From sequence record NC_005859.1: a stretch of DNA of 64,000 nt; one strand, given 5' to 3'. This stretch comes from Escherichia phage T5. The translations under genes and the position numbers were made by a program. Under the pieces are notes generated by a model. The model was not told the DNA's origin, did not search any database, and was given only the letters and a program-made list of their open reading frames with translations. Shown piece after piece: positions 5,930 to 63,091 of this stretch; the stretch's first letter is position 1; each line of letters opens with the position of its first letter.

Positions 5930-6186
5930 TGTTATAGTTTCCTTATGTTATTAATTTAATCTCTATTATATTATATCAAAACCATTAGCAAACTACCTAA
6001 TGAGTTTTTCAGGTTTAATTAGCAGACTCATAATCACTTTAAAATCCTATTAGCCAACTAACTATATTTTGTTATATAATAACTGCATAAATTAGTTAGT
6101 GAGAAACACTATCATTTAAGTTATCCACAGCCTTATACATTTTGTAAATTAACTTGACACAATAGGAAGGCTTTATAGCACTTTTA

Positions 6187-6238
6187 CACAGACTTATCCA
6201 CAGGTTATTCCACTGTATAAATATACAGGGTAAATGGA
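6187..6238. repeat. left arm of ~40-bp inverted repeat with DnaA-box-like site
   Basis: contains TTATCCACA (6194-6202) and palindrome CTGTATAAATATACAG; reverse complement matches 9420-9460. Confidence 0.65.
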
Positions 6239-9509: not shown

Positions 9510-9518
9510 TGTGGATAA
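9510..9518. promoter_or_regulatory. DnaA-box-like site
   Basis: TGTGGATAA, reverse complement of consensus TTATCCACA; further copies at 6121-6129 and 6194-6202. Confidence 0.5.
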
Positions 9519-58096: not shown

Positions 58097-58525
58097 ATGT
58101 TTAATAATGTATTCTCTAAAGAAGCTAATCCAATATTGGTTAATTTTTGGCGTACTCTTCCAGCCAACCTGTACAATGAGGCTATTAATGCTCTAAAAAT
58201 ATGGTGTGAGAATAATGAAATCTCCTTTGCTTTTAAAGGCGAGATTGAAGAAGCTCCCTGTATTGGTTTAATTGTGCAGGTAGAGGATGGTCTTGAAGAG
58301 ATTGTCGGCTGGAAAGAGTTAGATGAAATGGGCTTGGTTTTTGCATTAAACTATAAGCTGTTTATGCCTAATAAACACCGTATTGTTGTTAACTATAAAA
58401 CCAGTGAATCTCCTGGCTTTCAAGTTAATGAACATTACGGTTGGTCTTACTCACCGGAAGAAGTAAATGATGGTATCCAAAAACTTCGTCGTTTTGGTTA
58501 TCAAATTCCGGGTTTAACTGCCTAA
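58097..58525 (+). CDS. hypothetical protein (tandem paralog A)
   Basis: 142 aa; shares PCIG...W.EL.EMGL..ALN..LF.P...GY..PGL pattern with next ORF. Confidence 0.5.
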   Translation: MFNNVFSKEANPILVNFWRTLPANLYNEAINALKIWCENNEISFAFKGEIEEAPCIGLIVQVEDGLEEIVGWKELDEMGLVFALNYKLFMPNKHRIVVNYKTSESPGFQVNEHYGWSYSPEEVNDGIQKLRRFGYQIPGLTA

Positions 58526-58534
58526 GGAGGCACA

Positions 58535-58927
58535 ATGGAACAAATATATTGGCGTCAGATTGATCCTAGTTTGGTGAAGTGTGCAGAGAAGCTGCTACAA
58601 CGTTGGTTGGGGGTAAGACAAGCCTCCTTCACTTTTCCGGAGCAGCAAATAGACGATCCCTGTATTGGTGTTTTCCTATCAGGCTACGCTGGGGAATGGG
58701 AATTGGATTGGAATGAATTGTCTGCTATGGGTTTAATTGTTGCACTAAATTTCTCTTTGTTCCATCCACGTGGTTTGGCTATATGTCGTGTGCCTGATGA
58801 TGGTTGTTCGCCCCATCTTTTACGGGTGGAAGATGATATTTGGGAGTACACTCCAGATACTCTCAAAGAAGCTAAAGAACAGTTAAACCGTGTTGGGATC
58901 TATGTTCCAGGCCTGAATGATGAATGA
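58535..58927 (+). CDS. hypothetical protein (tandem paralog B)
   Basis: 130 aa; paralog of 58097..58525; AAGGAGG SD. Confidence 0.5.
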   Translation: MEQIYWRQIDPSLVKCAEKLLQRWLGVRQASFTFPEQQIDDPCIGVFLSGYAGEWELDWNELSAMGLIVALNFSLFHPRGLAICRVPDDGCSPHLLRVEDDIWEYTPDTLKEAKEQLNRVGIYVPGLNDE

Positions 58928-59019
58928 TTTTTATTAGCTGAACTCTGATTACCGAGTCATTTTGGCTCGGTTTTCTCTGTACTCAAAGACACTGATAGCA
59001 CCATCCGGAAAATTTTACT

Positions 59020-59048
59020 TGCAGGATGCCCAAAATCTTGATATAATA
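59020..59048 (+). promoter_or_regulatory. sigma70 promoter heading a ~500-nt ORF-free region
   Basis: TTGCAG-N17-TATAAT; next ORF starts at 59545. Confidence 0.55.
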
Positions 59049-59544
59049 TTTATATTGAATTGAGAGACATTAGTAAAAATTGATTTTGCTAATTTTTCTT
59101 GTTTACAATCCGCGATACGGAACAGTTAGGCTGCCCCATTAAGGGTTGTTTTAACTGTTACTAGTGTTTATATTGCATTAGTTAATATTCAATTAAGTGA
59201 TCTGTGTACCCTGAATTCGGAAAGGTAAATCCAAACCGTGCATATTTAGCTCGTTATATAGGCAGAGTTTTATATGGGGGTGCGAACGAAAAGAGCAGCG
59301 AATGGCGGCACGTACAGTAGTCACCTACCAATAGGATAGTGAGGACAAATAGAATCGGCTTAGCGGCCAATGACCTAGGTTCTATTCTGTATATGAGCGA
59401 AGAGAGCACAGCACTGAGATATGATAACTTATTCATATTGTTTGATGATAATTGATGTTTACGTAAATAGTAGTAATAGTTGTTCTATTCTTTCTGAATA
59501 GTCCTAAAGAAAAGATTTCGATTAACCAACACAGGAGTATTGTT

Positions 59545-62331
59545 GTGTTTTCTATCCTCCAAGGTCACGCCGGATTTTCTCGTGATTTAGCAACAGGTAT
59601 TTGGCGAGAAATCAAAGCGGAAGATTATACCTTTGCCAAGCGATTCTCGAAAGAGCATCCAGAAGGTAAACCAGCTTCTATGCCCTTCAAATTTGATGTA
59701 ATAGAAGAGCACGACCCACAAAGCCTTGCCGAAATGTTACCCCTCATGAGACGTTTAACGTCTGACCCTCATATCGTTGCGGTGCGAGGTCGATGTCTCG
59801 CACCTAAAAATAATGTGCGACGTAAGAAAGGTAACTTTAATGTATCTAATCCTAGTAATATTATTGCTATGGACGTGGATGGTATCCTAGATACCGGTGG
59901 GTATGACAAATTTAATCTTGTTGGTATGGCCCGCCACATTATTAAGATGTTGAATAGTATTAGTGAGGATATGTTTCCTCTTGATGCAGGGTTTATTGCT
60001 CATGCATCGTCTTCGGCTGGGCTAAAACCAGGTATCCGAATGCACTTAATGCTAGAATCTAACGTCAAGGTAACTCAGGGTCAGCTAAAGTTCTTATTTA
60101 CATCTATCAACGATAGTAGTAAGCAAAAATTTGGTTTTGATATTGCCGACCTAGCTTATTATTCATCTGTCCAGCTCCACTATTTTGCCGACCCCTTATT
60201 TAGCGATGGTATTGTTGATCCGTTTAAAGCGGAGAGTAAGCCACGTCTGGTGTATGTTAAAGGTTCGAAAGTAAATTTGCCCAATAATCTGGTTGACTAT
60301 GAAACAACTAGAGGGGAGTTTAAGGAAGAGTTTTATTCTTTACTTGATCAAATTAAAGGCAAAAAGATTGCTTCTGATAAAGTAGAAGAAACCATCAGCG
60401 AGTTAGAAGAGGCTGATGATGGAGTGTATTTGCGTATTATCCCCAAACTATACCATAGAGCATTAGAGGATGGTGTTGATTTTGCATGGCTAGAACGTGA
60501 GATTAAACCAGCTTTATCTGAATATATTGCAACTAAAGATAACAGTCGTAATATTCAAGATTACTTTAATAACGGTCGTAAGCAGGCTCTCAAAGCGTTT
60601 GTTAATAATTCTAAACGTGAGATTCCATTAAATCTGAAAGGTGTTCCACTTAAGAAATTAGAAGTGGATTCTCCACCAGAAGTTCCATACCTGAAGATTA
60701 ACATTGTGCCCCCAAAAGGCCATATAACATTTGTTAAGGCAAGTCTTGGTACTGGTAAAACTACGGCAGTAACTAAATGGCTGGACGCAGGTGTTCTTCC
60801 AGGCAACTTTTTAGCAGTTACAAATACTAGAGCACTGGTATCTTCAAATGCCAAGAAATTTAGTGCAGGACAATACGATAAGTCTGTAGATATGCTCAAC
60901 TTTAAACGTGGAGCTATCGATCGTATGTCCACAACTATTCACTCTTTGCATAAGTTCAAAAGTTTTATTGGGCAAATAGACACCATTTTTATTGATGAAT
61001 GTGACGCTGTAATGAATGACCTATTATTCGCCCCTGTTGTTAAACAACGTCGCGAGTGTATTCAAGTTCTACGTGACATCCTTATGACAGCTAAGACTGT
61101 AATCTTATCCGATGGTGATATTAGTGCTGAGACGATTGAAGCATATGGTTCTCTAATTGATTTTGATAAACCAGTAGCATTTTATAATCATCACCGTAAA
61201 ATGCTGTCAAAAGCACACGCTTATGAGTTTCCTGATGAATCCAGTATTTGGGTTGCACTTCAGACTTCTCTAGAGATGGGTGAGAAATCTATTCTAGTAT
61301 CTGATTGTGGCCCGGATGAGCTGAATGAGAAGGGTATGGCACTGCGTCGTAATACGGGTGCGTTAGTTAAGGAAATCCATTCAAACTCCACCTCAGATGT
61401 GGATATTCGACGTATTCTGGATTATACAACTAATGAGCTAATTGATCAACAAATTGATTGCTTATTATGTAGTCCATCCGTAACGAGTGGCGTTGACTTT
61501 AACTATTTCGATAATGTGTTTGTTATTACTAGAACCAGTAATCAAGCGCCAAACATGCGTTTCCAAGCAATCAGGCGCGACCGTGGTGCCCAGAACATCT
61601 ATTATTTTATTGATAAATCTACGAGTGGATTCTCTGCAGGTTCTGAGCAATATAATATTGATGAAGGTTGGCTGGAGTTAGCACAGCAATTATACGCACG
61701 TCGTAGAGAGCTGGAATCTAGAAACTATACTAGTACCTTACGTTATTATTTGCTTGATCAGGGTGCAACTATTGATATTTTCAGCGAAAGCTGGGGAACT
61801 ATTGAAGGTGCTGGTAAAGAATATACAGAAGAGCGAATCAAAGCTATTCTGCATTCAACTCCAGATTATTGTGCCCCACGTCATGCAGATGCATATGAAG
61901 CTAAACTACTTCTTGTTCGCTATTATCATCTTGAGTCTATTAAAGATGTAACAGTTGAGCATGTCGAACAATATATCAAAGATAAACCGAATGATCGAGC
62001 TGCATTCTTCCATAAGATGCACGAGATGTTCTGGGAAGATATTAAGAAGTGTTCAAATGTGACCATTAAACCATTCATAGAGGCTCTGAAAGGTAAGAAG
62101 AAAGACTTCTTCCTTAAAACAGGTCAGAGTGCCAACCCAAAATATGCTAGAATGTATCTTGGTATGATGGGTATTGGTAAGGATATGAACACTGAAAATA
62201 TTGTAGACTGGTACAGAACCTATTGTAAAATCGAGTGTATGCCAATTCCTTTCAAATTCATGACAGAGGAAGAGAGGGCTATGGCAGAAGAAGTAATGTC
62301 CGAACTTGGAGCAACTAATGAAGATGCATAA
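59545..62331 (+). CDS. P-loop NTPase, helicase-like (putative replication origin-binding protein)
   Basis: 928 aa; GTG start with ACAGGAG SD; Walker A SLGTGKTT, Walker B IFIDECD. Confidence 0.65.
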   Translation: MFSILQGHAGFSRDLATGIWREIKAEDYTFAKRFSKEHPEGKPASMPFKFDVIEEHDPQSLAEMLPLMRRLTSDPHIVAVRGRCLAPKNNVRRKKGNFNVSNPSNIIAMDVDGILDTGGYDKFNLVGMARHIIKMLNSISEDMFPLDAGFIAHASSSAGLKPGIRMHLMLESNVKVTQGQLKFLFTSINDSSKQKFGFDIADLAYYSSVQLHYFADPLFSDGIVDPFKAESKPRLVYVKGSKVNLPNNLVDYETTRGEFKEEFYSLLDQIKGKKIASDKVEETISELEEADDGVYLRIIPKLYHRALEDGVDFAWLEREIKPALSEYIATKDNSRNIQDYFNNGRKQALKAFVNNSKREIPLNLKGVPLKKLEVDSPPEVPYLKINIVPPKGHITFVKASLGTGKTTAVTKWLDAGVLPGNFLAVTNTRALVSSNAKKFSAGQYDKSVDMLNFKRGAIDRMSTTIHSLHKFKSFIGQIDTIFIDECDAVMNDLLFAPVVKQRRECIQVLRDILMTAKTVILSDGDISAETIEAYGSLIDFDKPVAFYNHHRKMLSKAHAYEFPDESSIWVALQTSLEMGEKSILVSDCGPDELNEKGMALRRNTGALVKEIHSNSTSDVDIRRILDYTTNELIDQQIDCLLCSPSVTSGVDFNYFDNVFVITRTSNQAPNMRFQAIRRDRGAQNIYYFIDKSTSGFSAGSEQYNIDEGWLELAQQLYARRRELESRNYTSTLRYYLLDQGATIDIFSESWGTIEGAGKEYTEERIKAILHSTPDYCAPRHADAYEAKLLLVRYYHLESIKDVTVEHVEQYIKDKPNDRAAFFHKMHEMFWEDIKKCSNVTIKPFIEALKGKKKDFFLKTGQSANPKYARMYLGMMGIGKDMNTENIVDWYRTYCKIECMPIPFKFMTEEERAMAEEVMSELGATNEDA

Positions 62332-63062: not shown

Positions 63063-63091
63063 TTGCTTTCAGGAAAATTTTTCTGTATAAT
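63063..63091 (+). promoter_or_regulatory. T5-type early promoter
   Basis: TTGCTT (63063-63068), 17 bp, TATAAT (63086-63091), then SD and ATG 63122. Confidence 0.75.

Follow-up and report, generated by a model that had tools for sequence, protein, structure and literature searches.

A conserved multi-helix RNA predicted in the leader of the replication gene D2/obp of phage T5 and its relatives

Several described systems join RNA structure, or a transcript, to the genes and sites of DNA replication. The autogenous operators of phage replication proteins, such as those of T4 gene 43 and gene 32, the RegA targets of the same phage and the target of the f1 gene V protein on the gene II mRNA, each consist of one hairpin, a few tens of nucleotides long, overlapping the ribosome-binding site. 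Promoter-dependent origins are represented by ColE1 RNA II, by T7 phi1.1A/B with their AT-rich region and by the R-loops of T4 oriF and oriG. In the lambdoid modules, the N-terminal domain of the O protein goes together with the ori iterons, which are DNA iterons located inside the gene. Large RNAs with a complex fold are rare, and they are usually ribozymes, riboswitch-like sensors or scaffolds of ribonucleoproteins (RNPs). T5 has been a model phage for decades and, to our knowledge, neither its replication origin nor the control of its D2 gene is known. Here we analyse the 617 nt that separate the stop codon of T5p105 (58927) from the GTG start codon of D2/obp (59545) in Escherichia phage T5 (record NC_005859.1; all positions refer to the stretch of 64,000 nucleotides studied, hereafter the window). 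These 617 nt show 100% identity to T5 and, since the start coordinate of D2 is shared with the T5 reference contig, the window corresponds to T5 positions 1-64000. Comparison with related phages strongly supports the view that the leader of D2 forms a conserved multi-helix RNA of ~450 nt, extending from ~59054 to ~59501 and containing ~13 helices.

Relatives were gathered through searches with the D2 protein and with DNA, and five enterobacterial clades of the Demerecviridae were compared: the T5-type phages, a type B group comprising many Salmonella and E. coli phages, the Sugarland-like Klebsiella phages, the Pectobacterium phages My1 and DU_PP_V, and the Providencia phages. The order promoter, long leader free of open reading frames (ORFs) and obp is common to all five, and the promoter itself is kept in the Klebsiella, Providencia, My1 and DU_PP_V phages. 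The leader measures 468-494 nt in the four clades that carry a conserved 5' block and 613 nt in Providencia; the block lies ~60 nt from the inferred start in those four, and the octamer CUUAGCGG lies 298-328 nt from it in all five. Helix positions and length are kept while the sequence drifts or is swapped. The common architecture (Table 1) was derived from separate folds for each clade together with alifold runs for each type. Between SL1 and P2 it places the conserved block, which reads AUACGGAACAGUUAGGCUGCCCCAU in the common architecture and ATACGGAACAGTTAGGCTGCCCCAT in T5, is almost invariant in the T5, Klebsiella, My1 and DU_PP_V phages and is unique in the window. P2 corresponds to the inverted repeat I1 and is predicted by minimum-free-energy folding and by alifold in types A (the T5 type), B and My1. 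The conserved joiner GAGAAGUGA goes with P5 in the common architecture and is absent as such in T5. At the position of the 3' stem-loop a hairpin is also found, partly by inspection, in the Klebsiella, DU_PP_V, My1 and Providencia phages. The original prediction, made from the T5 letters alone, had named a long structured leader and a small RNA among the possible readings of this region: the former is strongly supported by the ~13-helix architecture with its compensatory changes within and between clades, and the latter is of the wrong scale for an element of ~450 nt.

Those compensatory changes are seen at several levels. The type A alignment (13 sequences) contains six compensatory pairs, 11 one-sided compatible changes and two broken ones; the compensatory pairs are 59205/59408 in P3, 59419/59438 in P9 and, in the junction core, 59314/59390, 59321/59345, 59349/59385 and 59350/59384. 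For P2 in this type, 6/6 changes keep a standard pair through G-U/A-U or C-G/U-G exchanges, and the only broken cell comes from a single sequence, at a pair that also varies compatibly. Six pairs are likewise compensatory in type B (12 sequences, 97% mean identity), among them 153/358 and 155/356 in P3 and 160/217 in P4 (type B numbering), with many more one-sided compatible changes and very few broken pairs. Over seven representatives, all eight pairs of P3 are canonical, with multiple compensatory changes, its inner strands including CUGUG/CACAG, CUGCG/CGCAG, CUACA/UGUAG and CUAGA/UCUAG. P4 is also fully canonical with compensations in seven representatives, and in T5 itself shows one-sided changes only. 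Other clades covary in P5 (GGAG/CUCC, AGAG/CUCU, GGUC/GACC) and in the P9 stem (GUGG/CCAC, GGGG/CCCC, GAGG/CCUC).

A covariance model of the 3' half, R1, was trained on type B, DU_PP_V, My1 and Klebsiella sequences and on no T5-type sequence. It detects T5 at 59309-59396 with an E-value of ~0.002 and the Providencia phage at 0.045-0.2, whereas 0.8 Mb of unrelated viral sequence, chosen beforehand because it contains two of the model's motifs, yields no false match at E<0.1. In the alignment fitted by R1, a procedure that leans toward structure, 88.7% of the pair cells are paired, compared with 36-46% once the partners are slid by 1-3 columns, and 30 of the 40 pairs have changed on both sides; none of 500 shuffles reaches the observed values. 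Folding of the plus strand exceeds that of its shuffles (z -2.66), while the minus strand does no better (z -1.17), and the many G-U pairs point to the sense (+) strand. At 91-92%, conservation in the flanks of the RNA exceeds the 86% of the D2 coding sequence, whose third codon positions stand at 69%. Taken together, these comparisons indicate that the leader carries a conserved secondary structure that is backed by covariation.

Three further pairings or repeats were considered and not retained. A pseudoknot between GGCUGC (59130-59135) and GCGGCC (59363-59368) is possible in most clades; it has no positive covariation, and a double change in My1 favours P8a. The sequences AACAGTT and AACTGTT, taken as DNA binding sites, have no independent support and are better explained as P2 strands plus a local hairpin. 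The T5 direct repeat GUUCUAUUCU (59379 and 59482), a possible hint of a switch, was set aside because type B lacks it. The terminator scan also marked a minus-strand terminator-like site at 59354-59371, which is the reverse complement of the P8a hairpin.

The leader would be transcribed from an early promoter. Public T5 records list at this gap just a putative terminator and a "putative early promoter T5P32"; literature searches returned no T5 transcription start site data, transcript map or description of the leader element. A promoter TTGCAG-N17-TATAAT had been noted at 59020-59048, and it is indeed present, one base lower than noted, its true span being 59019-59047 when the sequence is read. 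A TG makes its -10 element extended. The T5 early class is defined by a TTGC(T/A)N -35 element, a 17-nt spacer, a TATAAT -10 element, an A/T-rich upstream tract and a TTGAGAG-like initial transcribed region. The D2 promoter follows this sigma-70 pattern, parallels the classical promoter PN25 and the TTGAGAGAGG downstream of it, and by these features belongs to the class; a generic sigma-70 scan skipped it because TTGCAG shares just 3/6 positions with TTGACA. In the window TTGC-N19-21-TATAAT occurs 26 times, against 1.36 expected, with none of 100 shuffles getting to 26, and the set includes PN25 (63063-63091). The 26 sites span 16271-63091 and are all on the minus strand up to 53833 and all on the plus strand from 55728.

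With the spacing taken by analogy with PN25, transcription would start at about A59054, giving a leader of 491 nt. At the other 25 early-type promoters the leaders measure 20-67 nt, unless they hold 1-3 tRNA genes or a second (tandem) promoter, so that the D2 leader is the sole long one of the 26 with neither. The terminator scan finds no plus-strand terminator from the promoter to D2, and the region therefore reads as leader. Upstream of the promoter, the intrinsic terminator of the preceding operon is listed as a putative rho-independent terminator in AY587007 and in BF23, a similar hairpin and U-run occupies the same place in My1, DU_PP_V and the Klebsiella phage, and it would insulate the promoter, the RNA and D2 as a unit. 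The two genes just upstream, T5p104 and T5p105 (58097-58927), are paralogues with a DUF7415 domain in each.

Table 1. Features of the D2/obp locus of phage T5, with positions in the window; helices are predicted
Feature	Position	Strand	Details
Intrinsic terminator, upstream operon	58951-58977	+	Stem-loop 58951-58971, then T-run; terminator scan
Promoter T5P32	59009-59047	+	A/T-rich 59009-59018, TTGCAG 59019-59024, TG 59039-59040, TATAAT 59042-59047; activity predicted
D2 mRNA leader	59054-59544	+	491 nt; start A59054 from spacing
SL1	59062-59100	+	Stem-loop directly 3' of start site; same shape and different sequences in every clade (predicted)
Conserved 5' block	59115-59139	+	ATACGGAACAGTTAGGCTGCCCCAT; may form small hairpin CAGU-NNN-GCUG
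P2	59152-59192 with 59442-59482	+	Long A/U-rich helix closing central domain of ~260 nt (~265)
Exchangeable central cassette	59195-59471	+	Allele type A in T5; type B in close relatives, same length
P3	59196-59207 (GUG-AU-CUGUG) with 59406-59415 (CACAG-CAC)	+	8-bp long-range helix, strands ~210 nt apart
P4 domain	59207-59282	+	P4 59207-59211 with 59278-59282, around hairpins P4a 59217-59237 and P4b 59241-59275
P5-like hairpin	59295-59309	+	GCAGC-GAAUG-GCGGC; alifold of type A; equivalence to P5 of other clades uncertain
Three-way-junction core	59312-59392	+	P6b 59312-59317/59387-59392, P7 59320-59346, P8 59348-59386
P8a mini-hairpin in P8	59357-59368	+	NNCU-UAGC-GGNN; invariant octamer CUUAGCGG at 59359-59366
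P9 hairpin	59418-59439	+	AUAUGA-UAACUUAU-UCAUAU
3' stem-loop	59485-59501	+	CUAUUC-UUUCU-GAAUAG; no U-run; ends structured domain, ~30 nt before Shine-Dalgarno
Shine-Dalgarno and start codon	59533-59547	+	AGGAG 59533-59537; D2 GTG 59545-59547
D2/obp	59545-62331	+	Bipolar SF2 helicase, putative replication initiator; 928 aa, GTG start

The ~500-nt stretch had been called free of ORFs, and this is borne out: the ORFs there reach at most 60 aa, none is conserved even in close relatives, and the set of small ORFs, whether judged by position, strand or length, already differs between T5 and a relative 92% identical to it, and again among all clades. T5 itself has a 60-aa minus-strand ORF at 59254-59436, and some depositors list small hypothetical ORFs in the gap; with no ORF conserved, a protein-coding leader was rejected. 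As regards known RNA families, Rfam 15 (4227 models) gives tRNAs only for the whole window at the gathering score, four chance-level matches to unrelated families for a 1.1-kb region at E<=10, and no match inside the element for five relatives at E<=10. We found no similarity among the 4227 families, which include GOLLD, ROOL, OLE, HEARO, raiA, RNase P and introns. RNase P RNA, of which some motifs are suggestive by eye, was rejected: E. coli rnpB shares scattered, non-collinear 7-11-mers with chance E-values, and the RNase P covariance models have no match in the window, the 1.1-kb region or the relatives. A tRNA or tmRNA was also rejected, ARAGORN finding none in the region. The D2-leader RNA fits no described RNA family.

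At least part of the region is carried by 532 phage records. Of 120 stretches from a metagenome scan with the conserved 5' block, only 2 were true loci; a scan of viral contigs for a pattern of two motifs (100 of 120 stretches screened) returned only T5-like phages already known, and in the scans made the element is found nowhere but directly upstream of obp. Relatives from Vibrio and Aeromonas also keep ORF-poor gaps of 600-1600 nt upstream of obp; R1 finds no match in them even with filters off, and these gaps may hold unrelated or very diverged elements. The gap of Vibrio phage PG07 (L040:1724-2362) folds well beyond its shuffles (z -4.5) and contains a direct duplication of ~90 nt (~86 identical bases), and that of Aeromonas phage TS3 (L041:719-2308) has two CUUAGCGG-type hairpins. 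Insertions are seen in and beside the element too. One type A and two type B phages (L013:2400-3016, L020, L034) have, between SL1 and the conserved block (the equivalent of ~59100), a 97-nt insert with the direct repeat TTTTTCTT on either side; this points to an insert within the RNA that is small and mobile or was acquired independently. ECOP18 (L170:680-1168) carries an HNH homing-endonuclease gene and Kenya-K15 (L171:1140-1592) a hypothetical ORF in the interval from the upstream gene to the promoter, in both cases with the RNA and D2 intact, and this intergenic boundary therefore appears to be an insertion hotspot.

The centre of the RNA behaves as an exchangeable cassette. In the upstream genes T5 shares 90-99% identity with the type B phages, and over most of D2 85-97%, whereas at ~59195-59471 the identity drops to 0.66, near the 0.59 of a shuffled baseline; in spite of this, the distance from the conserved block to the start codon is 433 nt in one and 435 nt in the other. 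Conversely, phage L015 has far more divergent flanking genes, yet it retains a T5-type centre at 91% identity, so the centre is swapped as a module. The two types also differ in D2. Over 26 genomes, 32 residues perfectly discriminate the RNA type and 32/32 lie at 36-419, with 18 of them at 362-419, whereas none of the variable columns in 420-929 does so. In the nucleotide sequence, discriminating positions are absent upstream of 59100, number 168 inside the RNA, are sparse through the 5' part of D2 (a few per 150 nt), rise to a second peak at 60600-60900 and do not occur past 61200. Although linkage alone could account for this pattern, both the asymmetry and the second peak fit a co-adaptation of the RNA with the N-terminal half of D2.

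The protein concerned had been described as a GTG-initiated, helicase-like product of 928 aa, and it corresponds to D2/obp, a characterised helicase (PMC3632103). D2 has been purified and characterised as a bipolar SF2 helicase that binds and unwinds tailed DNA substrates, and it has been proposed as the replication initiator (PMC3632103). Pfam recognises in it a Herpes_ori_bp segment at residues 389-533 only, and for the N-terminal half (residues 1-400, 59545-60744) Pfam and PDB sequence searches give no match. The AlphaFold (AF2) model of residues 1-400 (pLDDT 81) has as its top PDB matches AEP primase-polymerases exclusively, namely LigD-Pol, RepB', ASFV PrimPol, S-2L PrimPol and VACV D5, with marginal scores (best E 8.5e-4, TM 0.24-0.33). 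D110 and D112, which form a DxD motif, and H167 are invariant across nine distant homologues. The N-terminal half of ~400 aa thus looks like an AEP primase-polymerase fold in the model and, given this fold and the invariant DxD and His residues, D2 is probably a primase-helicase fusion, which goes beyond an origin-binding helicase.

What would such an RNA do? The reading that we prefer, and that carries about half of our confidence, is that the D2 leader is a previously undescribed structured RNA that acts in cis on D2 expression. The terminator, the T5 early promoter, the ~450-nt structured domain, the ribosome-binding site and D2 would form one unit, in which the RNA most likely sets the amount or the timing of D2 synthesis by binding a factor. 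Because D2 variants co-segregate with the central cassette, the best candidate for this factor would be the N-terminal half of D2 itself, and D2 would then be under autogenous translational control of the sort known from other phage replication proteins, on a much larger scale. The placement is that of a cis-regulatory element: the RNA lies in the 5' untranslated region (UTR) of D2, with no intervening gene or terminator, and it keeps this position in 5/5 clades. Several points weigh against such a role or the structure beneath it. The folds and alifold runs compared reveal no expression platform conserved across clades; pairings with the Shine-Dalgarno sequence or the start codon are predicted (UCCU/AGGA, upstream pyrimidine tracts, 5' block with start codon, local start-codon hairpins), and they differ between alifold runs and between clades. 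Its ~450 nt and ~13 helices far exceed the needs of known translational operators. Plain linkage may explain the co-segregation of the RNA with D2, for which few independent lineages were sampled. The pair counts obtained with R1 use a model-fitted alignment and share its bias, whereas the within-type counts rest on trivial alignments without it. Finally, the low-information model of the 5' half, R2, recovers its own training clades only, and not T5, Klebsiella or Providencia, so that homology of the T5 P4 domain is argued from position and manual pairing, and this domain is the weakest part of the T5 structure.

An alternative that we regard as unlikely, although far from negligible, is that the strong early promoter, together with its structured transcript, constitutes or switches on a T5 origin beside the initiator gene, the RNA serving as primer, as persistent R-loop or as loading platform for the D2 primase-helicase; the centre of the RNA would then be swapped jointly with the N-terminal half of D2, as a specificity module. 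An origin-like region had already been suggested at this site, and the DNA-level hallmarks do not support it, iterons, DnaA boxes and skew all being negative: the iteron search gives short two-copy repeats at chance level only, and tandem arrays of no more than two weak rows; there is no DnaA box within 3 kb; and the strand-composition switch is absent, the cumulative GC-skew minimum lying at ~52-54 kb and not at 59 kb. That minimum coincides with the switch in transcription strand, and the skew measure is confounded by transcription. With these hallmarks absent, an origin survives in RNA-mediated form only. In favour of that form are the adjacent putative initiator (PMC3632103), its AEP primase-like fold as modelled, and the resemblance of the promoter, the A/T-rich initial region (GC ~0.31, 59000-59199) and the ~490-nt structured transcript to RNA-primed origins. 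Low GC (0.31-0.34) marks both 59000-59199 and 59400-59599, where the tracts are the promoter, SL1 and both strands of P2. The cassette type, moreover, co-segregates with D2 36-419 and with nothing upstream, as in the lambdoid initiator-origin modules, and the site (59.3 of 121.75 kb) falls close to the middle of the genome. A 1976 electron-microscopy study is said to have placed an early origin near the centre of the genome. On the other hand, 59000-59600 contains no minus-strand promoter-like site from which an RNA I-like antisense regulator could be made, and an R-loop primer has no need of conserved junctions and loops. T5 strand-bias data indicate dominant replication from one genome end (PMC10055335), and older electron microscopy, in the form in which it is cited in PMC3632103, describes multiple internal origins. 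Three perfect DnaA boxes (TTATCCACA) occur in the left-terminal region, far from the D2 leader, at 6121-6129 and 6194-6202 (+) and at 9510-9518 (-). We are equally doubtful of a further proposal, in which a new class of large phage RNA would work with the D2 primase-helicase as the RNA component of replication initiation; such an RNA could be an "origin RNA", or an RNP that recruits or licenses D2 in cis.

No greater weight is given to a free-standing large non-coding RNA, in which the ~450-nt domain (59054 to ~59501) would be cut from the leader and work in trans, be it as a ribozyme, as a scaffold for an RNP or as a decoy that counters a host factor or a defence system. The place of the domain before D2 would then merely reflect the rigid gene order of T5-like phages. 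The domain has the size and complexity expected of ribozymes and RNP RNAs rather than of operators, hairpins at the start and at the domain end would lend stability to a processed product, RNA genes (tRNAs) are what the other long "leaders" of T5 early promoters contain, and two deeply diverged alleles swapped between close relatives are what is seen at arms-race loci. However, neither a terminator nor a known processing signal follows the 3' hairpin, none of the 4227 Rfam families matches, the cassette is linked to D2 and not to the upstream genes, and the element is found only upstream of obp. Since covariation alone cannot separate RNA from single-stranded DNA (ssDNA), the hairpins might instead form in the displaced plus strand during replication, as a priming or helicase-loading signal comparable to the single-strand initiation (ssi) sites known from filamentous phages and plasmids. 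D2 can bind tailed DNA substrates and unwind them (PMC3632103), and its AEP-like domain, if correctly modelled, could prime on such a structure; nonetheless, we judge this very improbable. The promoter at a fixed distance (~60 nt from start to block in four clades) and the hairpin exactly at the start indicate a transcript; G-U pairs, weak in DNA as G-T, are frequent in the helices; and known ssi signals are far smaller than the element. Least credible of all is that the region is nothing special, being a functionless long leader or an unannotated small protein gene. The hypothetical ORFs of some depositors and the 60-aa minus-strand ORF of T5 would speak for it, but no ORF is conserved even against the 92%-identical relative, length and helices are kept through compensatory change, and conservation in the RNA's flanks exceeds that of the coding sequence beside it.

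A large RNA with no match, located directly before an initiator gene, is unexpected, and it offers a concrete handle on how T5-like phages, which are widely used in therapy cocktails, start or meter their DNA replication. The type A and type B alleles represent a natural experiment on how specific the RNA and the D2 N-terminus are for each other; in the model, this half of D2 looks like an AEP primase not recognised before. Should the RNA be no more than a translational operator, it would exceed in size every such operator known for a phage replication gene. If instead the RNA is a component of initiation, T5 initiation would be RNA-guided in a way undescribed for any phage, and the central domain of the RNA and the N-terminal half of D2 would constitute an exchangeable specificity module.

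Compared with the described systems, the D2 leader shows both similarities and divergences. As with the T4 and f1 operators, a replication gene has a structured RNA in its leader and its own protein is, by analogy, a plausible partner, and the RNA allele and the N-terminal half of D2 are inherited together; in contrast to these operators, the element has ~450 nt and ~13 helices and ends ~30 nt before the Shine-Dalgarno sequence. With riboswitches and other cis-regulatory leaders it shares the location in the 5' UTR of its presumed target, a pocket-like multi-helix junction, invariant loop nucleotides and covariation. Unlike riboswitches, however, it has no match in Rfam 15, is 2-3 times the size of a typical aptamer and has no conserved terminator or anti-Shine-Dalgarno switch, and the context of the D2 gene hints at no ligand. 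The strong promoter, the A/T-rich tract and the ~500-nt structured transcript beside replication functions may be likened to the ColE1, T7 and T4 origins, from which the locus differs in having neither an antisense regulator promoter nor a skew switch and in its junctions and loops, which exceed what an R-loop needs. OLE, GOLLD, ROOL, raiA and HEARO also have a large complex fold recognised by comparative analysis only, and many copies of GOLLD and ROOL are, like the D2-leader RNA, phage-borne; the latter nevertheless matches none of them in sequence or structure, is confined to T5-like phages in the scans made, and is fixed in the leader of one gene instead of being free-standing near tRNA genes. 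Finally, while the T5 element differs from that of lambda in being an upstream structured RNA domain without repeats, it resembles the lambdoid modules in that a non-coding element and the N-terminus of the adjacent initiator are co-inherited, as alternative alleles, in phages that are otherwise near-identical.

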